Source: a virus (taxonomy: Duplodnaviria; Caudoviricetes). Taken from it: DNA of 64,000 bases. How positions within the stretch are numbered: the first letter of the stretch is position 1; every line of letters starts with the position of its first letter. Under the pieces are notes generated by a model. That model saw nothing but the letters and a program-made list of their open reading frames with translations, did no database searches and was not told where the DNA came from. A program made the translations under genes and the position numbers. Below, piece after piece: positions 4,680-61,700 of the stretch. The stretch is taken from positions 1 through 64,000 of the IMG/VR virus record IMGVR_UViG_3300025099_000016. The stretch is one strand, 5' to 3'.

Positions 4680-4685
4680 AGAATT

Positions 4686-5579: not shown

Positions 5580-5581
5580 AA

Positions 5582-8107: not shown

Positions 8108-8117
8108 AGTTTTATTT

Positions 8118-8471: not shown

Positions 8472-8568
8472 TTGTTTTTTGTTTAATAATTAATAAATAA
8501 TTGTTTGTGAATTAAGGTTTAAAGTTTAAGGGTTAGGGTTTGCGCTTATTTAGTATTAAAAGAAACGG

Positions 8569-9414
8569 TTATGATAACCGCTTCTCTATATTAGTGTATA
8601 CTTCCATACCTTCATCAGTTTTAAACCACTGTGCAAGCGCGGAGTATGGGTGTTCGTCAAACGGAACTGTCATAAGTTTTCTATCGTTAGATCCCCACAT
8701 AAAGTGTCTTTGATCTGATGATAACTTTATAATGTTTAGTTCAGTCGCTTTAATACCAAAGTTCCTTAGTTGCACGTTATCGTCATTAACTAACTCTAAG
8801 AACAATTCAGGGTTTCTTTTAGCATATAATAATAAATCTCGTTTAAGTTCCTTAGAACTCATCTCAGATACCTTAGAGCCTAACTCAACACGCATAACAG
8901 CTTCAGCCATATCTATGTCTAGATTTTGAGCAGCGTTTAAAGCCTCAATCTCTAGTTCAATCAAAGCTACTTCGTTAGCTGCTTGTACTATAGGTTTATC
9001 CTCTTCGTATATAACATCTTTCATTGGGTGATAAAGAGATAATAACTTCTGTAGAACGGTTTTATTTTTAGGAACTACTAATGTTCCGTTTCTAAATATA
9101 ATATGTTCCAATCTTTGGTCACCAACCATCTCATCTACAAAGCATGTCCTTTGATTAGAGCAATACTTCAATTCTCTTTCGTAACCTTTTTCTTCATCAA
9201 AGTAATAAATATTACTACCTTTTATAAGACTAGATAGAGGTGTCTTACCTTTTAAGTGATAAACTCTATCTTTAATCTCCCATTTAGGAGTTTTAGGTTT
9301 TTTAGGAACTTCTACTTTAGGTGTTTCAACAATAGGTTGCTCCATTACTTCAATCACCTCTTGTTCTACTACAGTTTCTTTCACTGCAGCTTTCTTTGTT
9401 TGCTTTTTAGCCAT
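8569..9414 (-). CDS. Conserved hypothetical protein downstream of the major capsid gene
   Basis: 281-aa ORF with a K/E/P-rich N-terminal extension. Confidence 0.6.
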   Translation of the reverse strand: MAKKQTKKAAVKETVVEQEVIEVMEQPIVETPKVEVPKKPKTPKWEIKDRVYHLKGKTPLSSLIKGSNIYYFDEEKGYERELKYCSNQRTCFVDEMVGDQRLEHIIFRNGTLVVPKNKTVLQKLLSLYHPMKDVIYEEDKPIVQAANEVALIELEIEALNAAQNLDIDMAEAVMRVELGSKVSEMSSKELKRDLLLYAKRNPELFLELVNDDNVQLRNFGIKATELNIIKLSSDQRHFMWGSNDRKLMTVPFDEHPYSALAQWFKTDEGMEVYTNIEKRLS

Positions 9415-19259: not shown

Positions 19260-19512
19260 CTACTAAAACTACATCTCTTAATCTAATAACTCTATACATC
19301 ACACTATCATAATCTATATCGTGGCCAGCGTGCTTATCGTACATCACAACCGTATTGACTTTTATGATGTCCGCTAAGTTACCAACAGATACTACCCTAG
19401 CTTTCTTATACCTATTATCTGTATCTGTGTCGTCAGTAAGTAAAAGACCACCCGAAGTAGTCTTCTGCTCTTTTATTCTTTCTACAACTATATAATCATT
19501 AACTGCCTTCAT
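19243..19512 (-). CDS. groES: Co-chaperonin GroES
   Basis: KAVNDYIVVER...TTSGGLLL...ARVVSVG...VMYDKHAG; adjacent to groEL. Confidence 0.9.
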   Translation of the reverse strand: MKAVNDYIVVERIKEQKTTSGGLLLTDDTDTDNRYKKARVVSVGNLADIIKVNTVVMYDKHAGHDIDYDSVMYRVIRLRDVVLVDEDNS

Positions 19513-21064
19513 TTACTCTTACATTTGAGATTACACAATCAGCTGACATTATTGTGAGCGCTACACTAACGGCATTCTTCAATGCTGTTTTAGTTACTAA
19601 CACTGGATCTATAATACCTGCTTTAACCATATCTACAGGTAAACCGCTTACAACGTCGATACCTCTTCCTAAGTCTTGAGTGTTAATCATGTCTTCATAA
19701 CCAGCATTGGATAATATAGTTTCGTAAGGAGCTCGGCACGCTAGAAGAAGTACATCTCCGGCTTGTCCGGAGAGAATTTTTTCTGAAGCGTTTAATAACG
19801 CAACGCCTCCACCTGGTACTATACCTTCTTTCAGAGCGGCTTTAGTAGCATATATAGCATCCTCAACTCTATCTTTCTTTTCTTTAAGTTCAATTTTAGA
19901 GTCAGCACCAACTTTAACGACACCAACACTACCTGATAAAGTAGCTAACCTCTGCTCAAGCTTCTTCTTTAAAAAATCGTTACCCTCTTCAGCTATCATA
20001 GCCTTAACTTCTACTATCCTTTCTAATACATCGTTAGTAGTAGCGTCCATAGTTATTGTAGTATTTCTATCATCAGTAACAGCGAAATCAACTTCACCTA
20101 AATGTTCAGGTGTAATTAGATCTAAGTCATCTCCTAGCTCCTCGTTTATCACGGTAGAACCAGTCAGTATGGATAAATCCTCTATTGCATCCATTCGTGT
20201 AGGACCAAAACCTGGTGGATCGACGATGTTTACCTTGATATTACCCTTAACCTTATTCATCAATAACGCTGATTTGACTTGTTGAGCAACTGGTGCTACA
20301 ATAAGCAAAGCTCTACCTTGCTTTATAACATGTTCTAATACTCCTTGTATTTTACGTATGTTAGGTATTTCAGAAGAAACCGTTAACACATAAGGGTTAT
20401 CTAGCTCGCATATATGTTTCTCCGTATTAGTAATGAAATGTGGGGAGGTTAAACCACAATCTATCTGCGCTCCATCAACTACTTCTACGTAAGTATCTTC
20501 AGTAGGGCTTTCCTCCAGTAAAACTACACCGTGTTTGCCTACTTTCTCGTATGCTTCAGCGATAATTGCACCTAATTCCTCGTCATTGTTACAGGAAATA
20601 GCAGCGACAGATTTAAGCATATCTCCCTCCACTTCTATAGCTGTTGAATCTAGGTACTCAATAACCTCAGCAAGGCATTGATTAACTCCATCTTTAATTT
20701 CTCTGATTGAAACGCCTGCAGCGACGGCAAAACGTATAGAATTTATAAGAGCTTCCACTAAAACTGTAGCGGTGGTTGTTCCATCACCAGCTTCTTTTAC
20801 AGTATTACGAGCAGCTTCTTTAACTAGGGTTGCACCCATGTTCTCGACCGGATCAAATAAGACTACGCTTTCCGCAACGGTTACACCATCTTTTGTTATG
20901 ACCGGTTTGCCTCGTCCATCTTCGTAAATAACGCACTTTCCCGATGCGCCTAATGTGGACTTAACGGCTCGTGCTAGCTTATTAACGCCAGCAATTACTC
21001 TATTCTCAGCTTCCTCGCCAAAGTTTAGATCTTTGACCAGTTCACTGGGTAAATTGTACTCCAT
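19499..21064 (-). CDS. groEL: Chaperonin GroEL
   Basis: ITKDGVTVA, AGDGTTTATVL, GIVPGGGVAL and GIIDPVLVTKTAL motifs; no C-terminal GGM tail. Confidence 0.97.
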   Translation of the reverse strand: MEYNLPSELVKDLNFGEEAENRVIAGVNKLARAVKSTLGASGKCVIYEDGRGKPVITKDGVTVAESVVLFDPVENMGATLVKEAARNTVKEAGDGTTTATVLVEALINSIRFAVAAGVSIREIKDGVNQCLAEVIEYLDSTAIEVEGDMLKSVAAISCNNDEELGAIIAEAYEKVGKHGVVLLEESPTEDTYVEVVDGAQIDCGLTSPHFITNTEKHICELDNPYVLTVSSEIPNIRKIQGVLEHVIKQGRALLIVAPVAQQVKSALLMNKVKGNIKVNIVDPPGFGPTRMDAIEDLSILTGSTVINEELGDDLDLITPEHLGEVDFAVTDDRNTTITMDATTNDVLERIVEVKAMIAEEGNDFLKKKLEQRLATLSGSVGVVKVGADSKIELKEKKDRVEDAIYATKAALKEGIVPGGGVALLNASEKILSGQAGDVLLLACRAPYETILSNAGYEDMINTQDLGRGIDVVSGLPVDMVKAGIIDPVLVTKTALKNAVSVALTIMSADCVISNVRVNEGS

Positions 21065-32957: not shown

Positions 32958-33795
32958 ACCAATGCTGGCACACCCTGTCAGCGACCGACCAGTTGACTAC
33001 GATAATGGTCCTGTATTTATACAACCTAAGCTTGACGGCGTGCGTTGTCTAATACAGTATGACAATAGCAAGGTAACAGCGTACTCACGTACAGGTAAAG
33101 AATGGAAAAACATTGACCATATATTGTTCAATCTAAAACCATTCTTTCAACTAAATCCTGACGTAGTACTCGACGGCGAGTTATATAATCACGATCTAAA
33201 AGATGATTTTGAGAAGATTATCTCTTGCGTTCGTAAAACTAAACCTACAGATGAGCATAGAGCTGAGTCTGAACGACTAGTACAGTTTCACTGCTACGAC
33301 ATTATAAAACCTAGCCCACGTGGTATGAGTTTTAGTGTACGTGATGAATGGATACAGTTAAATGTACCACTAAACTTTTGTGTAAAACATGTGGATTCTA
33401 TCCCTGTACGTAGTGATGATGATGCTCTATGGCAGAATAGTAGAAGCTTAAAAGCGGGTTACGAAGGTTCTATACTTAGAACTAATGATATTTATCAACA
33501 CAAACGTTCACACAACTTACGCAAGTTCAAGCAGTTTCACGACGCTGAAGCTAAGATAATTGGCTGGGTTGCAGGTAAAGGTAAACGTACAGGTACTATT
33601 GGTAAGTTTATGGCAATGGACACTGATGGCGTAGAGTTCGGTATGCCTGTTATGGATAAGCAGAAATACCTAGAAGAAAACTTCGAAAAGATGCAAGGAT
33701 GGGTAGGTAAGATTGCTACGTTCAAATACTTCGAGCGTACAAAAGCTGGTAGTTACCGTCATCCTTTATTCAAATGTATACGCGACTACGAATAG
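32944..33795 (+). CDS. lig: ATP-dependent DNA ligase
   Basis: Motif I QPKLDGVR, LDGELY, YEGSILR, LRKFKQFHDAE and the OB-fold end RHPLF. Confidence 0.93.
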   Translation: MMRYKPMLAHPVSDRPVDYDNGPVFIQPKLDGVRCLIQYDNSKVTAYSRTGKEWKNIDHILFNLKPFFQLNPDVVLDGELYNHDLKDDFEKIISCVRKTKPTDEHRAESERLVQFHCYDIIKPSPRGMSFSVRDEWIQLNVPLNFCVKHVDSIPVRSDDDALWQNSRSLKAGYEGSILRTNDIYQHKRSHNLRKFKQFHDAEAKIIGWVAGKGKRTGTIGKFMAMDTDGVEFGMPVMDKQKYLEENFEKMQGWVGKIATFKYFERTKAGSYRHPLFKCIRDYE

Positions 33796-33796
33796 T

Positions 33797-34288
33797 ATGA
33801 ATATATTTTACTTAGATGAAGATCCTAAAAAAGCAGCTAAGCTACAATACAATAAACATGTAGTGAAGATGATACTAGAATCTGCCCAAATGTTGTGTAC
33901 TGCACACCATCATTATGACAATGGTGACAAAGTACCATACAAGAAAGCGCACTATAATCATCCTTCTACTATATGGGTACGTGAAAACGCTTACAATTAT
34001 ATGTGGCTTTACAGGCATATGCTAGCACTAGGTGATGAATATACTAGAAGGTATGGTAAACAGCATTTAACTATCACTAAATGTTATGATCCGCTGTTTA
34101 GATTACCGCCTGGTATACCTATACCTGACCCGTTAACTCACACACAACCTCCGCAGGCTATGCCTGATGAGTACAAGAATAAGTGTAGCGTTCAAGCTTA
34201 CTGGAATTATTATATTGGCGACAAAAGCCATATAGCTAATACTAAAACAGAAAAAATATATGAAGAAAGACCTAAAACAACGTATTGA
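33797..34288 (+). CDS. Pyrimidine-dimer DNA glycosylase / endonuclease V family
   Basis: MNIFYLDEDP...KHVVKMILESAQMLCTAH...HYNHPSTIWVR; likely start is the ATG at 33797. Confidence 0.8.
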   Translation: MNIFYLDEDPKKAAKLQYNKHVVKMILESAQMLCTAHHHYDNGDKVPYKKAHYNHPSTIWVRENAYNYMWLYRHMLALGDEYTRRYGKQHLTITKCYDPLFRLPPGIPIPDPLTHTQPPQAMPDEYKNKCSVQAYWNYYIGDKSHIANTKTEKIYEERPKTTY

Positions 34289-39431: not shown

Positions 39432-39697
39432 TGTTTAAGAAGAAGAAAGCACCCTCCCGAAAAGCACCATTTTTACACCCATCTAAAGAGCAGTATACTG
39501 CTTGGGCTTGGTGTGTAAATAATAATATAAGTATATGTGTATTACCCGACTGGAGTAATTCTGGTAAGTGGTTAGTTGAAATAACCATGAACGAAAAGGT
39601 TACGGTAGATCCTAATACTTATAACGGTGTAGAGGCTTTAACTAAGATGTACGAATACTGTAAATACTATAAAGACAAATATGAAAATACACTTTGA
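39431..39697 (+). CDS. Hypothetical protein
   Basis: ORF track. Confidence 0.6.
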   Translation: MFKKKKAPSRKAPFLHPSKEQYTAWAWCVNNNISICVLPDWSNSGKWLVEITMNEKVTVDPNTYNGVEALTKMYEYCKYYKDKYENTL

Positions 39698-40322
39698 AAA
39701 TGCAAATGAAGCTTACGAATACTACCATGATCGTATATTACAACATGGCATATCATTTGGTGATACAAAAGCCCTATTCAATATAGGGTTTTATTTAACG
39801 AACCCATCCCTAAGGCAGATAACAAACCCTGAGCGTAAATGGAGTTTTGATTACGCTGAAGCTGAATGGCAATGGTATTTATCTGGCGACCCCAATATAA
39901 GCAAGTTAGGTGAGATATATGGTAAAGTACCAGCTATATGGGAACGTATGGCAGATCAAAATGGTTATGTTAACTCTAACTATGGTCATCAGTGGATGCG
40001 TCATGCACAGCTTGGTAATGTTATTAATATTCTTAGAGACAAGATGGAAACAAGACAAGCTGCTATAAGTATATACGATGGTAAAGAGATACATAAATAC
40101 GAGAATGACACACCATGTACATATGCAATACAGTTCACTATAATTGGTGGTAAGCTATGTATGTCAGTATATATGCGATCTAACGATTTGTGGTATGGCT
40201 TTTGTAATGATCAATACCAGTTTTCGCAACTACAAGAGTTGGTTGCATCAATGCTAGGTATTGAGATAGGTTGGTACTATCACCATGCGCACAACTTACA
40301 TTTATATAACGATAAGATATGA
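39681..40322 (+). CDS. Thymidylate synthase-fold enzyme, likely dCMP hydroxymethylase/methylase
   Basis: NSNYG, catalytic TPCT, and MRSNDLWYGFCND with Asp at the E. coli ThyA N177 position. Confidence 0.75.
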   Translation: MKIHFENANEAYEYYHDRILQHGISFGDTKALFNIGFYLTNPSLRQITNPERKWSFDYAEAEWQWYLSGDPNISKLGEIYGKVPAIWERMADQNGYVNSNYGHQWMRHAQLGNVINILRDKMETRQAAISIYDGKEIHKYENDTPCTYAIQFTIIGGKLCMSVYMRSNDLWYGFCNDQYQFSQLQELVASMLGIEIGWYYHHAHNLHLYNDKI

Positions 40323-41107
40323 AATATAAATTATACCACATACCCGGTAAGAAGATCGGTGTAACTCTCGACCCTAAACATAGGGTGGAGACTCAGCAGG
40401 GTTACGGTCCTGGTGAGTATGAAATACTAGAAGAATCTAACGATATAGATTATATATCGCATCGTGAGATTGAACTACAGAGAAGTCACGGTTATCGTGT
40501 AGACGAAACCCTTTATAAACAATTAAACCCTAATAAAGATCATATGAGAATAAATATAACAGAGCAGACTACAACATTTCCAGTACCTTTAAACAAGTTA
40601 AAAGGTCGACTTATGGATAATATAGGTATGGTTATACAAACTGGCTTTAATCGCCATGAGTTAGACACTGATTTAGTAGACTGGATAATGAAACACGCTG
40701 TTACATCTCAGTTTAACGAAGATCGTTGCTATGTATATAACAAAGCAATGTCCAACTTTAGATCAGCTACATTAGATAATACACACCATAATGGTGCTAC
40801 ATATATAGCGGCTGATATGTTTACTAAGATTAGACGTTGGGCATACGAACGTGGTATATACGATCATGGTGATTCTAAAACGCAGTATGTTAAGTTAATG
40901 GAAGAAGCTGGTGAATTAGCTGAAGCATTACTTAAGAACGATAAACCAGAGATTATAGATGCAATTGGTGATATGGTTGTTGTATTAACTAATCTAGCTA
41001 AATTAGAAAAGTTAGATATAGAAGATTGTATAGAGAACGCTTATGAAACTATATCAAAGAGAACAGGTAAAATGATGAATGGAACTTTTGTAAAAAACAC
41101 ATTATAA
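40319..41107 (+). CDS. MazG-like NTP pyrophosphohydrolase with N-terminal extra domain
   Basis: C-terminal KLMEEAGELAEAL...DAIGDMVVVL; N-terminal YKLYHIPGKKIGVT resembles GIY-YIG. Confidence 0.8.
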   Translation: MKYKLYHIPGKKIGVTLDPKHRVETQQGYGPGEYEILEESNDIDYISHREIELQRSHGYRVDETLYKQLNPNKDHMRINITEQTTTFPVPLNKLKGRLMDNIGMVIQTGFNRHELDTDLVDWIMKHAVTSQFNEDRCYVYNKAMSNFRSATLDNTHHNGATYIAADMFTKIRRWAYERGIYDHGDSKTQYVKLMEEAGELAEALLKNDKPEIIDAIGDMVVVLTNLAKLEKLDIEDCIENAYETISKRTGKMMNGTFVKNTL

Positions 41108-41449
41108 ATGAGCAGTAGAGAAATTATGGATTCTAAAAACGGGGTATCAACTAGAAGTATGCAGTTTAGAGACCCTATAGTAGAGAATGTTTGCGATAAA
41201 TTCTTACGTCGATCAGACATGGGTTATGAAAAGTATGGTCGTACATTACACAACGAACGTACCGGTAAACATAAAGACTTACTAGGTTATCTAAATGATA
41301 TACAAGAAGAACTAATGGACGCGATACTTTATATTCAAACGGCTCGTGAAGAGATGATGGAGCAAATGCAAAATCAACGTATGAATGTGATAGGGCAGAA
41401 TGGAAATGACGGAGAGCATTATGAAAACACGCCGGACTCGGACTACTAA
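41108..41449 (+). CDS. Helical nucleotide-diphosphohydrolase-like protein
   Basis: RSDMGYEKYG...DIQEELMDAILY, an EExxD acidic motif. Confidence 0.5.
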   Translation: MSSREIMDSKNGVSTRSMQFRDPIVENVCDKFLRRSDMGYEKYGRTLHNERTGKHKDLLGYLNDIQEELMDAILYIQTAREEMMEQMQNQRMNVIGQNGNDGEHYENTPDSDY

Positions 41450-41882
41450 AAATAGAGGCCCGGTAAGATCAAAGAAGGTGACCTATGATGGGATCACCTT
41501 CGCCTCCGGGCTTGAAAAGTATATGTATAAAGCTCTTAAAGAAGCTAAAGTTAAAGCCAAGTACGAAGGAGAGACTTTTGTTTTACTAGATGGTTTTTAT
41601 TTTGAAAACGAAGTATACGAAAGACAATCCAATGGAAAGGGTGAATTAGTTAACAGAGGTTGTAAACGTATACTACCTATTAAATACACTCCTGATTTTA
41701 TTGGTACAGATTTCATAATAGAAACAAAAGGTAGGGCAAACGAAAGTTTCCCTATGCGGTGGAAATTATTCAAGAGATTAGTTATGAATCAATTTCCTAA
41801 TGTAACCTTATACAAGCCACAAAATCAGAAAGAGTGTGATAAAGTAATTGAAATAATTTTAGAAAAAAGAAAAAGCAAATGA
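41421..41882 (+). CDS. Endonuclease I / Holliday junction resolvase (T7 gp3-like)
   Basis: FASGLE...KYTPDF...IIETKG. Confidence 0.8.
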   Translation: MKTRRTRTTKNRGPVRSKKVTYDGITFASGLEKYMYKALKEAKVKAKYEGETFVLLDGFYFENEVYERQSNGKGELVNRGCKRILPIKYTPDFIGTDFIIETKGRANESFPMRWKLFKRLVMNQFPNVTLYKPQNQKECDKVIEIILEKRKSK

Positions 41883-42031
41883 TAACAGGTTGGGAAATAA
41901 GTTTAGGATTATATCCAGGTGTACTACTTGGGTTTAGATCGTACATAGAAAAAAGTATAGAGAATCACGTTTTATATATACCGTTTATAGATATATGTTT
42001 AACTATAGAACGTGAATTTGATGAAGAGTAA
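41879..42031 (+). CDS. Small hypothetical protein (50 aa)
   Basis: Translated by hand: MITGWEISLGLYPGVLLGFRSY...EFDEE. Confidence 0.5.
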   Translation: MITGWEISLGLYPGVLLGFRSYIEKSIENHVLYIPFIDICLTIEREFDEE

Positions 42032-43001
42032 TATATTTGAGAAAAGGGTTAACATACTACCGTATCAATACCCACAGCTACTAGACTATAAGGATGCCAT
42101 TCGGCATTCTTATTGGATAGATACTGAGTTTAATTTTACCGATGATATACAAGACTTCAAGGTAAACATTAGTGATAAAGAGAGAGATATAATCAAGAAG
42201 ACTATGTTATCGATAGCTCAAATAGAGGTAAGTGTTAAAACTTTCTGGGCTGATATGTACAAGCGAATGCCTATAACTGAAATTGGTGATGTAGGTATGA
42301 CGTTTGCTGAGTCTGAGGTAAGACATAAAGATGCATATGCTAGACTGCTACGTATTCTTGGTCTTGAGAAAGAGTTTGAAACTGTAGTGGGAGTACCAGC
42401 AATTGATAAACGAATAAAGTATCTGACTAAATACTTGGATGGCACACGATCTAAAGATAATAAGATGTATACTAAATCAGTATTATTATTTTCATTATTT
42501 ATAGAGCACGTTAGTCTGTTTAGTCAATTCCTAATAATGATGTCTTTCAACAAGAACAATAACGTACTCAAAGGCATATCCAATGTCGTTGAAGCAACAT
42601 CTAAAGAGGAAGAGATACACGGTAATTTCGGAGTTGAGATTATCAACATCATCAAGAAAGAAAACCCTGAGTGGTTCGATGATGAGTTTCAAGAGTTAAT
42701 TAATTCAGCGTGCTTAAAGGCTTATAAAGCTGAGTGTGGAGTTTTAGACTGGATATTCGAAACTGGTGAATTAGACTTCTTAACTAAAGAAACGATACAA
42801 GAATTCATCAAGAACAGATTTAATAATTCACTAAACAAAATAGGGTATGAGTCTATATTCGAAATCGAGGAAGGGCTCCTCGCTAGTACCAAATGGTTTG
42901 ATGTTGAAATTACAGCTACAAAAGAAGGTGATTTCTTCTATAAAAAATCAATTGATTACAATAAGAAAAGTAAAAGTATAACTGTAGATGATTTGTTTTA
43001 A
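42021..43001 (+). CDS. nrdB: Class I ribonucleotide reductase small subunit
   Basis: Di-iron ligands in ESEVRHKDAY, FIEHVSLF and KEEEIHG; likely ATG at 42021. Confidence 0.93.
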   Translation: MKSNIFEKRVNILPYQYPQLLDYKDAIRHSYWIDTEFNFTDDIQDFKVNISDKERDIIKKTMLSIAQIEVSVKTFWADMYKRMPITEIGDVGMTFAESEVRHKDAYARLLRILGLEKEFETVVGVPAIDKRIKYLTKYLDGTRSKDNKMYTKSVLLFSLFIEHVSLFSQFLIMMSFNKNNNVLKGISNVVEATSKEEEIHGNFGVEIINIIKKENPEWFDDEFQELINSACLKAYKAECGVLDWIFETGELDFLTKETIQEFIKNRFNNSLNKIGYESIFEIEEGLLASTKWFDVEITATKEGDFFYKKSIDYNKKSKSITVDDLF

Positions 43002-44626
43002 TGGAGTATAAAAAATATTATTGGCTCAATAAAGAGTCTAGGTTGTTTCTGTCTAGAGGTTATATTACAGAAACACCCGAACAAAGAATAAAGGATATAG
43101 CTAACACAGCGGAAAAGTATTTAAAGATCGAAGGCTTTGCTCAGAAATTTGAAGACTACATGGCAAGGGGTTTTTACTCCTTGTCCACCCCGGTGTGGAT
43201 AAACTTCGGTAAAAATAAAGGTCTACCGATTAGTTGTTATGGTTCGAACATCGATGATAACCTAGATTCAATTTTAAATGCGTCTAGGGAGATCGGTATG
43301 ATGTCGAAATACGGAGGAGGAACATCAGCATACCTCGGGAATATAAGACCACGAGGAACGTCGATTTCAACTGGTGGTAAAGCTGACGGTCCGGTACATT
43401 ATGCACGTATGTATGATACCACTGTCGATGTCTGTAAACAAGCTGAAGCTAGGCGTGGAGCTTGTGCTGTATACTTGCCTATAGAGCATGATGATGTAAA
43501 CGAGTTTCTAGATATTGGTACTGAAGGTAATCCTATTCAGAATTTGCAGTACGGTATTACTATTACTGATGACTGGATGAAGAGTATGATAAGTGGCGCT
43601 AAACGTAAACGCGAGACTTGGGCTAAAGTTATACAAAGAAGATCTGAGTTTGGTTTTCCTTATATAATGTTTAAAGATAACTCCAACAATAATACACCTT
43701 ACAAAGAGTTAGGTTTGAATATTACAGCATCAAACTTATGCTCTGAAATTCAATTGCCAACCGACAGTTATAACTCATTTGTTTGTTGCTTAGGTTCGAT
43801 TAACTTGTTACACTGGGAAGAGATAAAACATACTGACGCTATAGAAACGTACGCACATTTCTTGAATGCGGTAATGGATGAGTTTATAAATAAGTCTTCA
43901 ATACTACCTGGTCTTGCTCGCGCACACAGATTTGCTGAGCAACACAGAGCAATTGGCATTGGTGTTATGGGTTATCATTCCTTATTACAATCTAAACTGT
44001 TAGAGTTTGATTCTCTGGCTTCAAAAGGTTTGAACAACGAAATATTCAAGACAATAAAACAACGATCAGAGGATGCATCTAAATGGCTACACGATTATAA
44101 AGGCTATAATAGTCTACGGGAAGGATTTGCTAACACAACTCTTATGGCTATTGCACCAACAAAATCTAGTTCCTTTATTCATGGTGCTGTCAGTATGGGG
44201 ATCGAGCCTATTAAATCTAATTACTTTATTAAAGATTTGGCTAAAACGAAAACTGTCTACAAAAACCCGTTCTTAGAAGCTGAATTAGAAGAGTATGATT
44301 TGAATACTGAAGAAGTTTGGGAAGGGATATTAAAGAAGGATGGGTCAGTGCAACATTTAGATTTCCCTACTAAAGAAGTGTTTAAGTCTTTTGTGGAAAT
44401 AGCACCAAAGGAATTAGTGTTACAGGCCGCACAACGACAAAAGTACATAGATCAATCACAGAGTTTAAACCTTATGATTGATCCTAGTATACCTGCGAAG
44501 GATATTAATCAATTATATATTTATGCTTGGAAAGAGGGCGTGAAAACTTTGTACTATCAATTCAGTCAAAGTTCAGCTCAAGCATTCAGTAGAAATATAT
44601 TAGAATGCTCTTCATGTGAAGGTTAA
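43001..44626 (+). CDS. nrdA: Class I ribonucleotide reductase large subunit, no ATP cone
   Basis: PISC, ASNLCSEI, AIAPTKSSS, KTLYY and C-terminal CSSCEG. Confidence 0.95.
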   Translation: MEYKKYYWLNKESRLFLSRGYITETPEQRIKDIANTAEKYLKIEGFAQKFEDYMARGFYSLSTPVWINFGKNKGLPISCYGSNIDDNLDSILNASREIGMMSKYGGGTSAYLGNIRPRGTSISTGGKADGPVHYARMYDTTVDVCKQAEARRGACAVYLPIEHDDVNEFLDIGTEGNPIQNLQYGITITDDWMKSMISGAKRKRETWAKVIQRRSEFGFPYIMFKDNSNNNTPYKELGLNITASNLCSEIQLPTDSYNSFVCCLGSINLLHWEEIKHTDAIETYAHFLNAVMDEFINKSSILPGLARAHRFAEQHRAIGIGVMGYHSLLQSKLLEFDSLASKGLNNEIFKTIKQRSEDASKWLHDYKGYNSLREGFANTTLMAIAPTKSSSFIHGAVSMGIEPIKSNYFIKDLAKTKTVYKNPFLEAELEEYDLNTEEVWEGILKKDGSVQHLDFPTKEVFKSFVEIAPKELVLQAAQRQKYIDQSQSLNLMIDPSIPAKDINQLYIYAWKEGVKTLYYQFSQSSAQAFSRNILECSSCEG

Positions 44627-45173: not shown

Positions 45174-45830
45174 TTAATAACCTGTTAATAATTTTAATAC
45201 GTCGTCTATTGCTTTATGTCTATGATTGTCTTCTAATACAACTTTATACACATATTTACTTTGTTCCATTTTAGCTATATCATCTATAGCAGAATTGAAT
45301 GAATCTTTGAGGTCCACTTGTTGGTTGTCCCCACAGAATATCATTACAGAGTTTTTACCTAATCTACCTAATGCCATGCGTAATTGTGCTTTAGTAAGAT
45401 TTTGAAATTCATCTACTATAACTACAGCACTATCAAATGTTCTACCTCTAAAATGAGTTAGCGAAACTAACTCTACTTCTTCTGAGTCTAACATCGTTTT
45501 AATCTTCTCAGGTTTGTTATAAACCTTTCTCATGTTAGACATAATAGGTACGAGCCAAGGTTCTAACTTCTCTTTCTCTGTACCAGGTAGAAAACCATTA
45601 TCCTCTGTTGAGACTGTTGGTCTAGTAATAACTATTTTATTGTACTGTCTTTTGAAGTACATATCTAACCCGATCTGAACCGCTAGTAACGTTTTACCAC
45701 TACCGGCTTTACCAACAACAAAGTTGTAAGCGTGTTTTATTATTTGTTCCTTAGCTCTCTTCTGTTCTTCAGATAAAGTTATATTAAATTTAATATTACC
45801 TTTCGGTGGTTTTTTATTTTTATTTTCCAT
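45174..45830 (-). CDS. phoH: PhoH family ATPase
   Basis: GKAGSGKT, ITRP, GFLPG, RGRTF, IVDEFQN and GDNQQVD. Confidence 0.93.
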   Translation of the reverse strand: MENKNKKPPKGNIKFNITLSEEQKRAKEQIIKHAYNFVVGKAGSGKTLLAVQIGLDMYFKRQYNKIVITRPTVSTEDNGFLPGTEKEKLEPWLVPIMSNMRKVYNKPEKIKTMLDSEEVELVSLTHFRGRTFDSAVVIVDEFQNLTKAQLRMALGRLGKNSVMIFCGDNQQVDLKDSFNSAIDDIAKMEQSKYVYKVVLEDNHRHKAIDDVLKLLTGY

Positions 45831-45839
45831 AAAATATAA

Positions 45840-46295
45840 TTATACATCAGCTATTTTATATGCTGTATCTCCATCGTTATCTTTGTAAGCTTCAAGTACT
45901 TGCTTCCTGTTATTCTTTTCTTTTAAAGATATATGTATCCAAGCGAAGTCGAACTCGTTAATCATTTGATCAAACTCTATCCCTTCTTTTATAACCCAGT
46001 CGTAGATTTCTTTATTACACATTTCACCCTTTTTCCAGAATTGTAGATCCAACGCCTGACCTTTACAGTGTTGGCTCTTAGTAGATCCGCCAATGGCACG
46101 ATTAAGTGACGGGGAGCGGTAACCACTACTAATCCTAATAGGACCAAGAGCGTCACGCATAGGCTGTATAAGATCTCTAATAAGGATTTGCATATTATTA
46201 AGGTGTTCTTGATTCGGCGCATTGTCTATTCCTAATCTTTTAGCTGTGTTACTTTTTACTATTTCTGATAATGTAAAGTTTCTACTTAATCTCAT
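45840..46295 (-). CDS. Peptidase M15 family endolysin
   Basis: ISSGYRS...SQHCKGQALD...WIHIS. Confidence 0.88.
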   Translation of the reverse strand: MRLSRNFTLSEIVKSNTAKRLGIDNAPNQEHLNNMQILIRDLIQPMRDALGPIRISSGYRSPSLNRAIGGSTKSQHCKGQALDLQFWKKGEMCNKEIYDWVIKEGIEFDQMINEFDFAWIHISLKEKNNRKQVLEAYKDNDGDTAYKIADV

Positions 46296-52722: not shown

Positions 52723-55700
52723 TTACTGGTGTGCGTAACATCTTTTGTTTTTCCTTTCCGTTATGTTCTTACACCGAGGACCTTTACCGCCTCTAGTATT
52801 TGCTTTACATCTATATTCTTTTTTACCGTCACCATCTAAATCGTCTCCATCTTTCCTGTTTTTCTCTGCCTCAGCTCTCTTTCTTTTGTTCTCTTTCTTT
52901 TTATCTTCACTTTCAGCTTTCTTCTTACCCGCTCTCTCTTGCTTAACTTTAGCTTTAGCCTCCTCTAGCTCCTTGTCTTTAACATCTAAACTCCACTTAT
53001 CCCAACCAGCTATTAAAGCTACTCGTTTCCAAGTCTCGTGGTTACTATTTATAGCTTCCTCTAAGTTCTGAGCTTTCCTAACAACTCTGGCTAAAGGAAC
53101 GTTTGTTGTGGCTTCAACAAGGTTACCGATAACGTTTAGTATAGGATTATCTATATCTAACCCCATTTTTTCTGGCACATCTTTGTTATACTCATAACTA
53201 TATATGGCAGACATTATTTTCCTAAGTTTACTACCTATAGGTGGGGATAATTGTACTGCTTCAATTGCTACTTTAGATAATTCTCTCTTACCGTAAGGCT
53301 TGTCTCTTTCTTCTAAATACTTCATGATAGTATTCTTAAGAGTGGAAGCCATAGCACCATACACGCCAGTACCTCTTAACAAAGTATCTAAAGCTCCATT
53401 AGCTACACGTGTTGTTTTAGTTTTAGTCTTTTCTTCATCTTCATCTCCACCGAACAATAAAAACGCTAAACCAGTTTGTAAGCTACCGAATATAACATTC
53501 TGCATAGCACCATAATATAATATCCTAGACACATGAGACTTCCAGTCACCCCTACCATTAACTAAATCTGATATTGCTTTCTTAGTTAGTCTAGTATATT
53601 GCATCGGAGTGTTTTGCCAAGCTAATACTAATCTACCTAACGTCCCAGCTTGTTGCTGAGATATAAGGTCAGGTCTAGAAGATTGTTGTGTTTCTTCTGC
53701 GATCTCTTGGAATTGATCGAAAGCTTTTGTTTCAGCCTCTTTCTGACTTAATCCTTCTTTAATATATTTGTTTATCTTATTTCTGTAATAAGTCGCGCCA
53801 CCAGATGCTATAGCGAAACTATCCGCGATCTGTGTAGGTGTGAAACCTATCTGAAGCAAATATCTAACAGCGGCTTTGTATTTATCTTTCGCACCACTCT
53901 TAGCTACAGTATTACTTAGCTCCGATAAGTTTACATCAATAGACATACCAGACCTACGCTGTTTTAACATGTCTGAATTAAACAACGTTATAAAATCTTT
54001 CCAATATTGAGGTTGGTTAGCGAAAGCTTTAGCCGCTTGGAATATATTATTATCTCCCCAATCTATAAAGTTAACCGTGGATAGGGTTTGAAGCATCGCT
54101 GATCTAGTGTTAAAGAACATAACAGCACCAACAGACCCGTTGATCCAGTCCATAAAGCCATTTACTACTTTATCTTTTTTACCAGTAACTCTGTTACTAC
54201 CAGTTTCCATACGGTATAACATATTCTCTAAAGCATCTCTAAAGTCTGTACCATAAACAGCCTCTATCTTATTCATGTTTTCAGGTGAAAATATAATGTC
54301 TACATTATCTTTCCATTCAGACAAGAACTCAGCTCTATTGGTCTGGCTAGATTGCCCAAATAAATCTGAAGCTATATTCCCAACAACCCAATTTTCGTCA
54401 GGTGTCACGTAACCGTCCTTAGCTCTAGATATTATACCTAAAGTATCAGCAAATGCTTTTGTTTTAGGATCGTTATTAACGTGGTCAGACAATAGTTCAA
54501 TTTCGTTTTCTGATATACCTGGTATATCTATACCACTCTTGCTCCACAAGTAAACTCTTATCGCATCATTAACAGTGAAGTCAGTTCCAGACACGTTTTT
54601 ATTGAGATTTTTGATAACCGTTGGCATCTCTTTTTTCAAAGTTTTAAACTCTTCAGAAGTTCTTTGCTTAGCAAAGTTCATATCTCTAATACCCTTAGCG
54701 AATGGATCTAATAAATGTTCTTTAAAGAAAGCCATGTCGGCATCACCTTGTTTACCCTTGCCCAGGAAGTTGTAAAGTAAACCTTTAAAATCCTCAGCTG
54801 ATGGTGGAACGAAGAATTTCTTTAAAATACCACCATCTACCTTCTTACCTCTTAATCTAGCTTGAGCATCGGAGAACACTTTACCTATAGGTACACCAGA
54901 GCTTCTTTCAAGTATATTATTGAAGTTAGCCGCACCATCTTGACTGAACTTAAGTTTAGCTTGTACTACTTTAGATTTAATATCTAATTGATCTAGTACA
55001 TCTTTAACAGCTTTAACGTTTGGCAAAGCATCATCAACAAAGTACATGTCGTTATAACCCTCAGCAAATTTCTGTAACATCCATTGACCCTTAGCTTCAC
55101 CTTCACTCTTGCCTAAGCCAGTTATATTTCTCAAAGGTAAATCTACACCTTGTGTTTTCAACCACTGCTGTATAGGCCCAGCTGAAGCTTGTTGTCTAGC
55201 TGTAAGTATGAATACATTTTTATTACCGTACTTAGCTATTTGATTTTTTAGTTTCTGAAGTAGAGGACCTTCCTTTCCACCACGAACATTTGCAAAATCA
55301 GAGAAATCGAACTCATACCCAGCGGCTGCATATTCAGGACCTTCGATCGGCCATTCTTCAGACGTTATCTTAACCTGTTGTTTAGTAACTGGGTCTGTAG
55401 CGACAACGAAGTTTTCACCACCAATAATAAGTGTTTCGTCAAAGTCAAATGTAGACATACCTTTTGAGTTGGCATTATCAAATCTAACTTCACTAAACTT
55501 GTCTATTTTGCCAATAAAATTTCTTGGTAAAGGTTGATCTTGCTTTAGATTATCAGTGTTTATTTCAACAAAGTTTACGCCTAACTCTTTAAATCTTTTT
55601 TTATTCGCTTGAATAGATTTATAACTATTCTTCACAGCGGTATTAGTTAGAATTCTTTCAGGTCTAGCTTTATTTCTAGCTAAAGCAGTTTCTAAAGAAG

Positions 55701-58700
55701 AGTCAACAAATATAATTTGAACATCATATCCAGCTTGCTTGAACTCTCTAACAGATCTTTCTACACCAGCCTTTTGAGCTCCGGTACTATGTGTGACAAT
55801 GCTCTTACCAGTTTCTCGTTGTTTTGCTTTAAGCTTATCAAGATCTGCACTAGAGTCATATTGTAAATTCCAAAATTTTTCCGACTGCTCTCTAGTGAAC
55901 TCATTCATATCTTTTGGTAACCCGGCTTTTTTAATACCTTTTTCTAAAGCGATATCAGGATTCATTACTTCAAACCCTTGATCTTTTAAACCAAGTTTTT
56001 TAATTATAGTGGACTTACCAGATCCTGAAGCACCAACAACTAATATAGCTTTTCTATCTGGTACTATTCTTTGGATATTACCATCGGTGCTATTTCTAAC
56101 GACTTCTCTAGCTTTTCTAGTGTTGTCTAAGTTCTTGATGTCAGCTTCATTAGCTATTAATCCAACTTCGCTTATAGCGTCTACATATTCAGATGCCTGC
56201 TCTCTAGTTATCTTACCGGTTAATATCTCTGATATTAAATTATTCTGTACATCGACTAATGCCCTAACTTTAGTCTTGCTCATACCTTTAGTATCTATAC
56301 CTACCTTAAAGTATTCAGGTATAGTCATGTTCTTAGATGGTAAGAAATAGTTATTTAAGTTTATACCACCCTTAGCGTATCTTATCATCGACGCCATACC
56401 AAGGTCTAACCAAGGTAGTTTATCATCTAATATAGCGGGTACTACCTCTTCCCAGAATTCATTAGGCATTGAGTCAACTAAGCTTTCTCTAAGTATATTC
56501 CCATCCTTATCTTTAATAGCTTTTAGCATGTTATCATCAACTTGAGTTAATGACAACTGAACAAACGCTGCTTTAGCAACTTTCAATACATTATCTATAG
56601 GTGTTTGATTTATTGCTGCACTTAAAAACATTGTGCCGATATTGTTTTGGGGCATAGAATGCTCCTCCCTCATCTCAACATCATAATGCAACTTACCATC
56701 CTTATAGTACACACCGACTAGAGAAGCTGAAGTTCTAAATATGGCATCACCATTACTACTAGCGTTAGTAACAAATCTAGCAAAGAACCAAGCATCATCT
56801 GGATTATTCTTTAAATGTTTCTGCACGTCAGTAAACATTTTAGCTAGGAAGTCTATTTTTTGTTGTTCAAACTCGAAAAATTCTTTCCCACTTAACTCTT
56901 GCTTACCAACGATAAACTTAACCTCACCGTTCTTTTTAACTACTCTTTTAGGATCAAGTTTTTGTGTACTGTGAAATCTGAATCTCTTTAAGAAGTTTGG
57001 CAACTCGTACCTTCTCATCCCAGCTAGTTCGTCAAAAACATCCTTAACACCAAACATACTTTTCCCTCGCCCGTTAGACATACCAACTCTAAATAGAGTA
57101 GCATAGACAGGATCAAGATCAGCCATTGTTTTAATTATTCTAGATGTTTCTTCACCTAAAGTTTTATCTCTACCTACTTCTCTACCTATCTGTACTAGTG
57201 ATTCAAAATTAATTAAAGTTACAGGTACTTCTCCTCTAGTTCTACTAACCTTAGTGCTGACTATTTTAGCTACCTTGCTCAATAATGGATCAGTTATACC
57301 AGCATCTTTAAGTATATGCCTAGACTCCATATTAGCATACTTCTTAAGTTCTCTAGAAACACTAACAGCATCTTCACTAAACATAACAGGTGACTTACCA
57401 CTAGCCATTTGTTGTACAGTTGTGGCTTGAGTATCATCTTGCATTAGAACCTCTCTAATGGCTTGATTTGACATAGCCCTATCTAACTGTTTAGCTAAAG
57501 CTAAAACCCTCGAGGATGTGTTCCTATCGTCTCTCTGTGGCTTACCATCTATAATACCGAATACCTCTAAAAACTCTGTTCTAGTTATATTAGGTTTTTT
57601 AGATTGAGCAGTCAAACCAGCTTTGGTTTTCTCTCTCTTAGATTTTTTATTATAGAACTTATCTAATAAAACTTTTTGAACACCTGTCGCTGTACCATCT
57701 TCAGTCGCACCTTCAGGTAACATTGATTGTAGCATGTCAGCGTTCTTAGCTATAAACATCTGAGCGTTAGCTAACTCTGGTTTACTAAGATTAGCATTAC
57801 TAGTTATTTTCTTGGAAGGTATACTCATTAACTCACCAACAGTCTCAGTAGCTATGTTAGGTGTTTTCTTATATGTAGTACCTGTAAGGTCGTTGTCTTT
57901 AACGTACTGCTTAGCTTTAGGTGCTATCTTATCTCTAACCTTTAATCTGTCAGCTAGAACAATACCTTTTCTTTTAGGACCAGATTGTTTAATACCTTCT
58001 TCAGTGGTAACGCTTTCAGCTTGTTTTGCTATACCTTCGTCAGTCATTGACTTGGTGGCAGTGTCTTGAACCCCTCTTTTAGCCATCACCTCTTTTGCTC
58101 TTTGAGGTAAGAACTGATTAATGTAGGCTGCAACGTTTTGATACTTGTGTTTTGCTGGATTAAAATCTTTAACTAATCCTAATACAGTTCTAGCTTTTGC
58201 TTTATCGGTACCGGGATCATATAGTATGTCAGCTATTATATCTTCTTTATTATCTAGTAAGTCATTTCTAATATCTTCTGTCTGTGCATTAGCTAAGGCT
58301 CTACTAAATATATTCTCAGCCATACCTCTATACTCCATAGCTATAACTCCAGAAATATCATCTTTCATTCTAGCCATCATCTTTAAATCAGCTTCAGTCT
58401 TTATTTCTTTATTTTGAATATCAAGTATGGGTTTATATAAATCTTGCACCCTCTCTGAAGCTTCAACGTCTATAGATTCTTTTGGCTCCACTGTGGTATC
58501 AGTATCTTCAGTCACACCAGCCGTTAATTCTCTACCTATTTTTATACCTTCTAACGATGCTTTTGTAAACGCTTTATTTCTACCAAACATGTTGCTCTTA
58601 GCATTCATATCAGTTATAAAGTTTAAAACATCTTCAGCCGTGTTAAGCTCTACGTTTTTCATACCTGACGCTTGTAGTATTCTACGTATAGGTGATTTAA

Positions 58701-61700
58701 GTTTAGCACCCAAGCTAGTATTGATCTTAATATCACCACTCTTCAAAGCATCCATTAACAAGGTTACTTTCTCCTCAGCTCTAACAGACTCAGGCTTATT
58801 AATATAAGCTGTTAATCTACTAGACATTTCAGATTGAGCTACAGCATCTGGATCTAAATCACTTAGTATATCATCAACAGCATTACCCAAAGCAATAGCA
58901 GCTCTAGGATTATCCGCTAAAGTATTCTTTAACAACTGATGCATCATCTCATGTTGTACTACGTTCGTAGCGCCTCTCTCGGCAGCAAACTCAGGGTTCA
59001 CTAATATCATATCTGCATGTATAGCAGAAGCACCGTGGCTGTTATTAAACGTTTCCTCAGTTAAAGCCTTCACACTAGCCTTATCCTCTTGTAACTGCTT
59101 TATCTCTTCTTTGATCTTAGTTTTAGATTCTTCGTCAGCAGTTTTTAAATCTTCCTTCTTCTTCTTTATTTTCTTATCAACAGCTTCTACCTCAGCTTTC
59201 TTATAAGTCTTTAACTGTTCACTTATGTTTTCACTATCAATCTTTACAACACTTATAGGTTTACCAAACATCTTGGTAGCTTTTCTTTCAAGCTCCTTAG
59301 TATCTCTTTCTACTCTACCTAAGTTTTCACTTTTGTTAGCGTTAGCTATTGTTTGATTTTTTAAAGCTGTTAAGTTAGCTATCTGAGCGTTGTTATCTTT
59401 TACTTGAGACTCTATTTGTTCTGGAGTTAAACCAAATTCACCTCTAATGCTTTTGTTATTAGCTTTTAAAGCAGCTATAGTTACGTCTACATCTATTAAA
59501 GCTTGCTTCTCTTGCGGTGTCATTTTATCTATGTTAGAAACAGTCTCATCCATTAGCTGTGAATGTTGACCCACTAACATACCTATATCCGACTCTATAG
59601 CTTTTCTATTTTCTGGAGACAGTTCTACCTCACTAAGTATTCTACTTTTTTGTTGTATCTTTTCACTTATACTTTGTAACTCAGCTGTAGCATCTGTAGA
59701 TTGAAAAGCTTTAGCTACATTCTTACCTATTAAAGGAGACTTGTATACGAGCCCACTCATAAATACACCACTAATGAAACTTTCGGTTGCACCTTCTAAT
59801 AGTGATTTACTCTCATCTCCTAATATAAATCTATCAGTAGCATTGGAAGCTAATTGAGCTAAAACCTCTGTACCACCTTCCTCTATAGGGTCGTATAAAT
59901 TCTCGTATAAACCTTTTCTAGTAAAAAAGTTTCGCTTCATAGTATTAGCAAAACCTCTCTTAGCTGCGGGGTTAGCTTTGAGTAGTGCTTTAACTTTATT
60001 GGCTTGACCAAGTGTAACCTTCTCAGATAGTCCCTCCGCTAAACCAGTTAGTATAGCAGTGGAATACTTTTGAGCAAATGTATAATTTTTCCCTGTATCT
60101 CTTTCCTCTCTATCTATATCCTTAAACTTCTGACCAGCAGAAGAAGCTCCTAATATAAAAAGACTCGCACCGCCAGTAGTAAACGTAACAGCTGTATTAG
60201 CTGCTTGAGACGTAACTAAATGACCAAACCACTCTCCAAGCTCCTCTCCATTACTAATATCTTTAAACTCTCCAGGTTTTTCTAAACCATTTAGTAAGTC
60301 TTCGTTAACTTTATCTATAGCGTCTATTCCTTCCCTAATAAGAGGAGTAGCTTTCATCATTCCCGATGCTACTGGACCCATTAGCGGTGCAATCCACTCT
60401 GGCATATCTAATTCTTTAGGTATTTCCAAAGCTTTCTGACCAACCTCTAATACTCCAGAACCTAATGTCATAGCACCAGAAGCTAGTTGACCACTCAAGT
60501 TAGCAGCCCAACCATAGTTCCTACCAACAGCATCTAAGTAACCAGTTAATTCCTCTTCCTTCTCAACTAGACCAGAACCTTCTTTCTGAGCGTTATCAAA
60601 ACCTTTTAAGTTCTTGTCTCTAAAGTCTATTAATTCCTCGTATGTTAAACCACCACCACTATCATAGTCTGTATTTAATTTATCAAACTGCAACCTTAAA
60701 CTAGCTAACTGCTTGTTAGCATCATCAACCTCTTCTTGAGTTTTATATTCCGCTGAGTTTATTTTATTCGCTTGAGCATTTATATCTCCTAGCTTTGTTT
60801 GAAGATTCTTTAAGTCATTGAATTTAGATTCTACACTCTCTAAGTTTGATATAAACTGTTTAGACCTCTTAACATTACTTTGAATCTCATTGTTTAGCTT
60901 CTTAGCGGACTCACTGGTTTCTTGTTCTAAATCTTTTTGATATGAACTTTTTTTAGAGCCAGCTGCTAATATCGAAAATGGATTCTCAACGGAAGATAAC
61001 TCTTCCATTGCTTCTTCAAAGTTATCCTCAAACTCTTGTTGCTCTATGTTTTTAGATCTTGCTTTAAGCATTTCAGTGTTGATAGACTCTTGAGGAATGT
61101 TTTTAATAAAATCCTCGTACTTCTCCGTGCCGGGCTCTAGTTTTTCGCCTGTAGTAGAATAATGAGATCTAAGAATATTTCTAGTAGCTTCCTCTTTCAA
61201 GCTATTCAATTCTCTATTAGCTTCAACCTGCTTATTTCTAGCTTGTTGATACTCTGCGTTAGAACCAGAGAAAGCTCCCGCTGTGGAATACTTAGAGGTA
61301 AAAGCATTATGTTTTACTACATTTTTAGGAGGTAACTCTGCTTGAGAAATTTGATTTAATAAGTCTATCTGCCCTTGAGCTTCTGACTGTATCTCAAGTA
61401 GTCTCTCTTCTTTAGGTTTGAAAGCTCTAAATTTATCTAGAGTACTATCTACTGATTCCGAAGAAGTACCTTCCGAAGGTGATTCCGTATTTGTTGTTTG
61501 ATTTACTTGAGGTGGATTTACCTCTTGAGTCTGTGCTGCAGTTTCCGATCCCGCAGTCGCACTTGTTGCAGGATCTTTCTGGTTTCCCTGATCTTGTGAT
61601 ACAGGTGATTTACCTTGAGATTTCATCGTTGATAAAAACTCTTCTTCTCTATGTGGAGCGACCTCATAAGGTTTACCATCCACTAAATAAACTTTGTTCA

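Follow-up and report, generated by a model that had tools for sequence, protein, structure and literature searches.

A MazG-linked thymidylate synthase homologue with the signature residues of a dCMP 5-hydroxymethylase in a marine podophage lineage

Introduction

Does a short homologue of thymidylate synthase (TS), encoded by a podophage of marine bacteria, make a modified cytosine nucleotide, and is this nucleotide built into the phage DNA? The question is raised by a plus-strand gene at 39681..40322 in the first 64,000 nucleotides (hereafter the window) of the 72,097-bp IMG/VR record IMGVR_UViG_3300025099_000016, which is 100% complete by CheckV and whose gene content is that of a podophage infecting marine Flavobacteriia-type hosts. 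The 213-residue product is a predicted deoxycytidine monophosphate (dCMP) 5-hydroxymethylase, judged from its match to PF00303 and from its signature residues, and the next gene encodes a protein with a MazG domain. An earlier note on this DNA had proposed a cytosine-modification pathway at the locus; the literature searched yielded no paper that treats modified cytosine in phages of this lineage. We consider it likely that the two genes encode a folate-dependent dCMP 5-hydroxymethylase and a MazG pyrophosphatase acting on deoxycytidine triphosphate (dCTP) or other deoxynucleoside triphosphates (dNTPs), and that the virion DNA carries 5-hydroxymethylcytosine (5hmC) or a derivative. Our observations are the fold of the TS homologue, its signature residues and their conservation, the fold and metal-binding motif of MazG, and the linkage of the two genes across genomic backbones; from them we infer the substrate and product of the enzyme and, each in turn, the specificity of MazG, the phosphorylation of the product, its incorporation and the extent of replacement.

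Identity and diagnostic residues of the TS homologue

The open reading frame (ORF) at 39681-40322 scored 88 bits against the Pfam family PF00303 (Thymidylat_synt; cut-off 24.3) and matched 117 TS-family sequences of the PDB. Ranked by score, its solved relatives were MilA (93 bits, residues 28-211), Escherichia coli ThyA (56 bits) and T4 gp42 (45 bits), and the ThyA equivalog models of NCBIfam gave 43-70 bits against cut-offs of 108-427. In the HMMER alignment, the protein and E. coli ThyA share the same residue numbers from 143 on. The stretch RSNDLWYGFCND begins at residue 166 (nucleotide 40176), and T4 gp42 reads RSNDVVFGFRND at the corresponding place. The earlier note had claimed an Asp at the ThyA specificity site, as in gp42, and this proved correct: residue 177 is Asp (codon GAT, 40209..40211, plus strand), where E. 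coli ThyA has Asn177 and T4 gp42 has Asp179. The NSNYG motif and the catalytic Cys, also claimed earlier, were both located, the former starting at residue 98 and the latter being residue 146, because PCTY starts at residue 145.

Several positions of TS-fold enzymes are informative about substrate and product. At residue 177, Asn selects deoxyuridine monophosphate (dUMP) and Asp selects dCMP, and what the earlier note called an established determinant is indeed a rule stated in the literature (PMC8670742, PMC13326640). The N177D substitution turns ThyA into a dCMP methylase (PMC8670742); more generally, N177D confers cytosine specificity, L143D/E yields a hydroxymethyl product and D169N yields a 5-hydroxy product (PMC13326640). 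A bulky hydrophobic residue at 143 thus goes with a methyl product and Asp or Glu with a hydroxymethyl product, while Asn at 169 is the mark of flavin-dependent 5-hydroxy-dCMP synthases (PMC13326640). In the MetaGPA study, the residues most strongly associated with cytosine-modified contigs were 177 and then 147 (PMC8670742). For T4 gp42, Asp145 activates the substrate water and is essential for hydroxymethylation, the D145N enzyme being inactive, and a hydroxymethylase signature made up of Asp145, Ser94-x-Tyr96 and an absent C-terminal tail has been proposed (PMC6400193). Ser167 and Arg126 have been associated with deoxyribose substrates, with Ala and Lys taking their places in MilA (PMC5175136).

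The TS homologue was aligned with typed enzymes taken from public phage records, namely T4 gp42 (dCMP hydroxymethylase), RB69 gp48 (5-hydroxy-dCMP synthase), the XP12 dCMP methylase, the dUMP hydroxymethylases of SPO1, ViI and phiW-14, and RB69 Td (ThyA). At 14 tabulated positions, it was identical to gp42 at all but Arg127, which is Gln here. The catalytic Cys146, the general-base Glu62 and the sugar-binding His207 and Tyr209 aligned with the corresponding T4 and E. coli residues. Asp143, the putative water-activating residue, stands three residues before the catalytic Cys in Asp143-Thr-Pro-Cys146 (40107..40118, plus strand), as it does in gp42, whereas E. coli ThyA has Leu and XP12 has Asn at this position. 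Residue 147 is Thr both here and in gp42; XP12 has Pro there, ThyA has His and the dUMP hydroxymethylases have Asn. Asp177 is replaced by Asn in all three dUMP hydroxymethylases and in ThyA, and residue 169 is Asp, where RB69 gp48 has Asn in the same alignment. Ser99-Asn-Tyr101 (39975..39983, plus strand), which lies within NSNYG, is identical to Ser94-Asn-Tyr96 of T4; the Ser-x-Tyr element is also present in the XP12 enzyme. Ser167 and Arg125 take the places of Ala176 and Lys133, the ribose determinants of MilA. Like gp42, the protein has no C-terminal tail; its own chain stops four residues past Tyr209 (Y209-N-D-K-I). The earlier note had expected either 5-methylcytosine (5mC) or 5hmC in the DNA. 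Cytosine modification is still what these residues lead us to expect, and between the two products Asp143, Ser99/Tyr101, Thr147 and the missing tail favour 5hmC or a derivative over 5mC.

Conservation and phylogeny

In a close set of 81 relatives (65-88% identity), E62, S99, Y101, R125, D143, C146, T147, R166, S167, D169, D177, H207 and Y209 were invariant except for a single R166S; Ser99-Asn-Tyr101 was kept throughout, and the residue at 177 was Asp in 81/81. In all 81 proteins, too, the chain stops no more than a few residues from Tyr209, so the truncation is native and does not reflect a broken gene. A wider set consisted of the 119 full-length entries among the 150 top-ranked representatives of the 50% clusters; D143, T147, D169 and D177 occurred together in 105 of these 119. 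The family comprises at least 8,000 proteins in 90% clusters (8,000/8,000 scored candidates), of which many come from marine samples such as those of Tara, and 558 IMG/VR stretches carry its members. The source databases label these relatives "thymidylate synthase".

In the FastTree phylogeny, a split with 97% SH-like support had the XP12 methylase and ThyA on one side and the hydroxymethylases and the hydroxylase on the other, and the dUMP hydroxymethylases formed a clade of their own, also at 97%. Of the placement with gp42 and apart from ThyA that the earlier note had proposed to examine by phylogeny, the split from ThyA and XP12 was therefore recovered at 97%, while the grouping with gp42 was weak, at 84%.

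The MazG fusion protein and its pairing with the TS homologue

The next gene (40319..41107, plus strand) overlaps the TS stop codon with its start (ATGA) and encodes a 262-residue fusion, in which a C-terminal MazG pyrophosphohydrolase follows a putative GIY-YIG-clan (T5orf172-like) domain and a middle domain; this bears out the earlier assignment of a MazG-type enzyme. The MazG domain (residues 165-260; 40811..41098, plus strand) scored 33.5 bits against PF03819 (cut-off 22) and 30.9 bits against PRA-PH, likewise above cut-off. Its acidic metal-binding motif (E195, E196, E199, E211, D214, D218) is intact; among 17 homologues of the fusion protein, E211 was kept in at least 90% and the other five residues were invariant. 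The MazG domain dominated the fold searches with the whole model, and the structural matches refer to residues 160-262: Z scores of 9-10 were obtained to MazG of Mycobacterium tuberculosis, Sulfolobus solfataricus and E. coli, S-2L MazZ and mouse dCTPase. The similar scores of mouse dCTPase and S-2L MazZ mean that dCTP specificity cannot be assigned from the fold.

Three domains were predicted in the fusion protein, at residues 1-60, 75-150 and 165-260. The first is a predicted beta-beta-alpha-beta-alpha unit with invariant Y6, K12, G14, R22 and E50, which fits the GIY-YIG clan. Profile matches to this domain in four homologues were all below threshold (T5orf172 13-19 bits, cut-off 20; MUG113 20.3 bits, cut-off 22.3), and T5orf172 was found in 11-48% of the members of its Atlas neighbours. 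The GIY-YIG-clan-like and middle domains (40319-40768, residues 1-150) are fused to MazG here, and MazG is a stand-alone protein of about 100 residues on other backbones.

The TS homologue adjoins MazG in 75 of 80 syntenic loci. Synteny inside one lineage by itself proves little about functional pairing. More telling is adjacency in other gene contexts: the TS homologue lies beside a stand-alone MazG of about 100 residues in three contexts that lack this primase-helicase (related loci L099, L109 and L121-L125). A dCMP deaminase is encoded between the two genes in L099 (2874-3290), and in L109 the second ORF upstream of MazG (2913-3701) encodes a SAM-dependent methyltransferase. In L124, a pyridoxal phosphate (PLP)-dependent enzyme of the PALP family (4108-5001) lies directly upstream of an Asp177 TS homologue and MazG, and two unannotated ORFs of about 300 residues (2291-4121) are likewise upstream of the TS homologue; together with the TS/MazG pair, these genes form a candidate hypermodification cluster. 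The genome studied here has none of these three neighbours, the PLP enzyme, the methyltransferase or the deaminase. Co-localization of TS, dCMP-deaminase and PRA-PH domains has also been described on cytosine-modified metavirome contigs (bioRxiv 10.1101/2024.12.05.627091).

The conserved 113-residue protein

Downstream of MazG, an ORF at 41108..41449 (plus strand) encodes a conserved helical protein of 113 residues with the invariant core R35 S36 .. K42 Y43 .. Q66 E67 E68 .. D71. Of 80 related loci, 68 have this gene downstream of MazG. The earlier note had read it as a second EExxD protein and potential pyrophosphatase. Although the segment QEELMDA is present, that proposal was not supported, as no relation to MazG or to nucleoside triphosphate (NTP) pyrophosphatases emerged by Pfam, PDB-sequence, profile-profile or fold comparison. 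Pfam (run on 22 homologues as well) and NCBIfam gave zero matches, phmmer against the PDB gave none, and hhalign against the neighbouring MazG family returned a probability of 0.4%. Foldseek with the low-confidence AlphaFold model (pLDDT 63) was empty, and the ESM Atlas was uninformative.

DUF6378 proteins are encoded near the TS-MazG pair on three alternative backbones (L124:2035-2301, L109:2641-2910 and L099:1709-1993). They share with the 113-residue protein an R..YG ... E-x-L-x-D-A-x-x-Y pattern, a weak resemblance at the level of a motif; in hhalign, only E-x-L-x-D-A-x-x-Y was aligned, with a probability of 2.8%.

Proposed pathway

In the reaction that we propose, Cys146 would attack C6 of dCMP while Asp177 reads the N3/N4 face of the cytosine, and the methylene group of 5,10-methylenetetrahydrofolate would move to C5. 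Water rather than hydride would then quench the exocyclic methylene, giving 5-hydroxymethyl-dCMP (hmdCMP) and tetrahydrofolate; quenching by water is suggested because the enzyme has no C-terminal lid and combines Asp143 with Ser99/Tyr101. Since the folate product would be tetrahydrofolate and not dihydrofolate, dihydrofolate reductase (DHFR) would not be needed, and none was detected in the complete genome. The translationally coupled MazG protein would hydrolyse dCTP, and perhaps pools derived from deoxycytidine diphosphate, to dCMP, thereby feeding the TS-fold enzyme and removing the competing canonical nucleotide. T4 gp56 plays the analogous role for gp42, and S-2L MazZ for PurZ. Host kinases may subsequently convert hmdCMP to 5-hydroxymethyl-dCTP, which the host replisome would incorporate. 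As a consequence, 5hmC or a derivative would replace some or all of the cytosine in virion DNA. The phage DNA probably holds 5hmC or a derivative.

A bolder version of this pathway, to which we give a low probability, is that a very abundant lineage of Flavobacteriia-type marine podophages uses the host replisome to put 5hmC, or a derivative not yet described, in the place of cytosine, having neither a DNA polymerase nor a deoxynucleoside monophosphate (dNMP) kinase of its own, and that the GIY-YIG-like and middle domains and the 113-residue protein supply functions of a new kind. These parts might, for instance, degrade unmodified DNA or discriminate against it, or they might phosphorylate or further modify hmdCMP.

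Points against the pathway and rival explanations

A number of findings weigh against a dCMP hydroxymethylase pathway that ends in modified virion DNA. By raw score, MilA and the dUMP hydroxymethylases of ViI, phiW-14 and SPO1 (phmmer, 59-62 bits) are closer to the TS homologue than gp42 (45 bits) is, and the 32-row group that contains gp42 in the tree is weakly supported (84% SH-like, in FastTree only, with a long gp42 branch). The substrate specificity of MazG cannot be read from its sequence, and MazG is common among phages that have no TS homologue. A Walker-A scan of the complete 72-kb genome revealed no recognisable dNMP kinase, the Walker-A proteins being only the primase-helicase, PhoH and a domain in the giant virion protein, with a fourth match in Erf that looks like chance. 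Profile and PHROG scans of the genome found no DNA polymerase A or B, and replication presumably uses the host polymerase, the phage itself encoding a primase-helicase, ligase, Erf, exonuclease, ribonucleotide reductase (RNR) and sigma factor. No glycosyltransferase was recognised in the genome, and sugar-nucleotide genes were not found in it either; the earlier note had seen no glycosyltransferase in the window, in agreement with our scan of its approximately 55 ORFs. GGCC is about two-fold depleted in the whole genome (17 observed vs. 36 expected, maximal-order Markov model), which would be surprising if every cytosine were protected; this depletion is compatible with the proposed pathway, but lends it no support. 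GCGC, CATG and GATC stand at 0.75-0.80 in the whole genome, and the palindrome statistics do not settle the question of DNA modification.

The P-loop kinase domain of the virion protein (54952-56154, minus strand; AAA_33 43 bits, Zeta_toxin 35 bits) lies inside an ORF of 2992 residues at 52723-61701. It was considered as a dNMP kinase and rejected, being of the generic AAA_33/zeta type and scoring 16 bits against the 5-hmdU DNA kinase model (cut-off 27). In T4, gp1 is needed for phosphorylating hmdCMP. When TS homologues were expressed in E. coli and their cognate kinase was left out, no more than traces were incorporated (PMC13326640). Given these two precedents and the lack of a recognised kinase or polymerase, phosphorylation and incorporation by the host are the weakest inferred steps of the pathway.

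These gaps bear on an outcome that we regard as possible though unlikely, in which hmdCMP is made but the phage DNA is not substituted in bulk; the nucleotide might then serve partial substitution, the reshaping or depletion of the host pyrimidine pool, or further modification by unannotated small genes such as that for the 113-residue protein. The missing dNMP kinase, DNA polymerase and glycosyltransferase and the persisting GGCC depletion speak for such an outcome, as do the PLP enzyme, methyltransferase or dCMP deaminase beside the pair on other backbones, which hint at downstream chemistry, and the conservation in the cassette of the 113-residue protein. However, none of those three neighbours occurs in this genome, and in metavirome selection experiments Asp177 TS homologues were found mostly on contigs with cytosines that withstand the selecting enzymes, which points to genome-wide modification (PMC8670742). 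An XP12-type dCMP methyltransferase, and hence a phage with 5mC, is a less probable explanation still, even though Asp177 and Ser-x-Tyr are common to the XP12 enzyme and N177D ThyA is a dCMP methylase (PMC8670742). Residues 143 and 147 differ from those of XP12, residue 143 differs from that of ThyA too, and the chain ends four residues past Tyr209 with no water-excluding lid, in contrast to the long C-terminus of XP12. The tree separates the two at 97%; moreover, XP12 encodes a DHFR that can recycle the dihydrofolate from reductive methylation, two genes downstream of the methylase and after a dCMP deaminase gene, whereas this phage has none.

That the substrate is dUMP, the enzyme being a thymidylate synthase or a dUMP hydroxymethylase and cytosine being left unmodified, we think very improbable. 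The database name of the relatives would suggest as much, and so would phmmer, which scored the ViI, phiW-14 and SPO1 enzymes above gp42, but Asp177 and Thr147 are invariant where dUMP hydroxymethylases have Asn177/Asn147 and ThyA has Asn177/His147; in addition, the NCBIfam ThyA scores are 4-6 fold under their cut-offs, and the dUMP hydroxymethylases occupy a separate clade. Canonical ThyA (EC 2.1.1.45) was itself rejected on D177, T147, D143, the lack of a C-terminal lid and scores under the equivalog cut-offs. We see just as little prospect for a flavin-dependent synthase of 5-hydroxy-dCMP such as RB69 gp48 or DLP3 gp80, or for a cytidine monophosphate (CMP) hydroxymethylase of the MilA/BcmA type, to which Asp177 with an acidic residue 143 (found in both types) and the rank of MilA as best-scoring solved relative might otherwise point. 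Asp169 is invariant and the diagnostic D169N is absent, which excludes a 5-hydroxycytosine product; the MilA ribose determinants are replaced by Ser167 and Arg125, and glycosyltransferase and sugar-nucleotide genes were not found in the genome.

Comparison with known systems

An Asp177 TS homologue that works with a pyrophosphatase to yield modified cytosine is an established strategy, and what is described here is a new lineage rather than a new mechanism. Among the closest counterparts is T4 gp42 (EC 2.1.2.8; PDB 1B5E, 6A9B), with which the TS homologue shares the TS fold, the lack of a C-terminal lid and an all-alpha NTP pyrophosphatase as partner (the dCTPase gp56 in T4). Every diagnostic position carries the same residue in both, namely the Glu, Ser-Asn-Tyr, Arg, Asp-x-x-Cys-Thr, Arg-Ser-Asn-Asp, Asp177, His and Tyr. 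The two differ in length (213 residues here, with the end four residues past Tyr209, vs. 246), in a similarity of only 45 bits and in Arg127, which is Gln or His here. In addition, the pyrophosphatase is here a MazG fused to a putative GIY-YIG-clan domain rather than a recognisable gp56 homologue, and the genome is without a gp1-type dNMP kinase, a DNA polymerase of its own or glucosyltransferases. T4 is, furthermore, a myovirus, whereas the present phage is a Flavobacteriia-type podophage.

The MetaGPA contigs (PMC8670742, bioRxiv 10.1101/2024.12.05.627091) resemble this locus in their environmental, including coastal, origin, in Asp177 and a non-His residue 147, and in PRA-PH/MazG-clan neighbours; a dCMP deaminase is also found in some relatives of the present locus (L099). 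However, the TS homologues linked to dCMP deaminase that were assayed made 5-methyldeoxycytidine (five confirmed; bioRxiv 10.1101/2024.12.05.627091), while a hydroxymethylase signature is found here. In the XP12 module, too, dCMP is modified ahead of replication by an Asp177 TS homologue, but the module differs in Asn143, Pro147, the long C-terminus, the adjoining DHFR and dCMP deaminase and its separate branch of the tree. MilA, the CMP 5-hydroxymethylase of mildiomycin synthesis (PDB 5B6D, 5JNH), has Asp at both 143 and 177; it exceeds the present protein by about 110 residues, serves antibiotic synthesis in bacteria and selects ribose by Ala and Lys, where Ser and Arg are found here as in the deoxyribo enzymes. 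S-2L MazZ (PDB 7ODY) is a phage protein of the MazG fold (Z 9.1) that converts a canonical (d)NTP to the monophosphate used as substrate by a neighbouring base-modifying enzyme, PurZ. It serves a purine (2-aminoadenine) pathway as a stand-alone domain, and its specificity is experimental, whereas that of the MazG domain here is putative.

Two TS-fold paralogues (5121-5927 and 8001-8681), both with Asp177, Asp143 and Thr147, were observed together with a dUTPase in Bacteroides phage BF503P2 (L002). One of the paralogues is 44% identical to the TS homologue of the window.

Genome context

The TS homologue sits in a plus-strand module for replication and nucleotide metabolism, in the order DNA ligase, DenV-like glycosylase, sigma factor, Erf, exonuclease, single-stranded DNA-binding (SSB)-like protein, primase-helicase, TS homologue, MazG fusion, 113-residue ORF, DUF1064 protein and class I RNR. 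The DUF1064/resolvase-like nuclease lies at 41400..41882 on the plus strand (PF06356, 37 bits; phrog_190). The small and large subunits of the class I RNR, which would supply deoxynucleoside diphosphates, are encoded at 42012..44626, also on the plus strand (PF00268, 194 bits; PF02867, 324 bits). The T4 DenV-like pyrimidine-dimer DNA glycosylase domain lies at 33713-34288 on the plus strand (PF03013, 27.5 bits); as listed, the start of this ORF overlaps the ligase gene, and the real start is probably near 33797. Elsewhere in the window, a GroEL-type chaperonin (19499-21064, minus strand; phrog_5725, 458 bits) stands amid structural and packaging genes, and a PhoH-like P-loop ATPase (45174-45830, minus strand; phrog_170, 215 bits) adjoins an endolysin at 45840-46295.

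The terminase is 47% identical to those of Flavobacterium elemo phages and 65% identical to that of an uncultured podovirus, the closest terminase being that of the uncultured Manatee Spring podovirus genome, and the primase-helicase is 42% identical to its counterpart in Cellulophaga phage phi10:1. By terminase or primase, the nearest cultured relatives are thus the elemo phages and phi10:1. A megablast of the 36-45 kb region against 50,697 phage records gave zero matches, and the TS homologue was absent from the three records checked, namely the elemo phage, phi10:1 and the Manatee Spring podovirus. Its absence from the nearest cultured relatives means that no isolate of the lineage is at hand for testing.

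Implications

With its end four residues past Tyr209, the predicted enzyme is shorter than any other natural TS-fold hydroxymethylase in this analysis, and it would be a compact candidate for making 5-hydroxymethyl-dCMP. Because Bacteroides phage BF503P2 is a cultured gut phage, cytosine modification can be directly tested in an isolate. If the proposed pathway is true, modified cytosine would be a frequent feature of ocean viromes (more than 550 IMG/VR contigs and more than 8,000 proteins), and virome work based on restriction, bisulfite, tagmentation or nanopore methods would be biased by it. The same modification would also shape the escape of phages from restriction and CRISPR in marine Bacteroidota.

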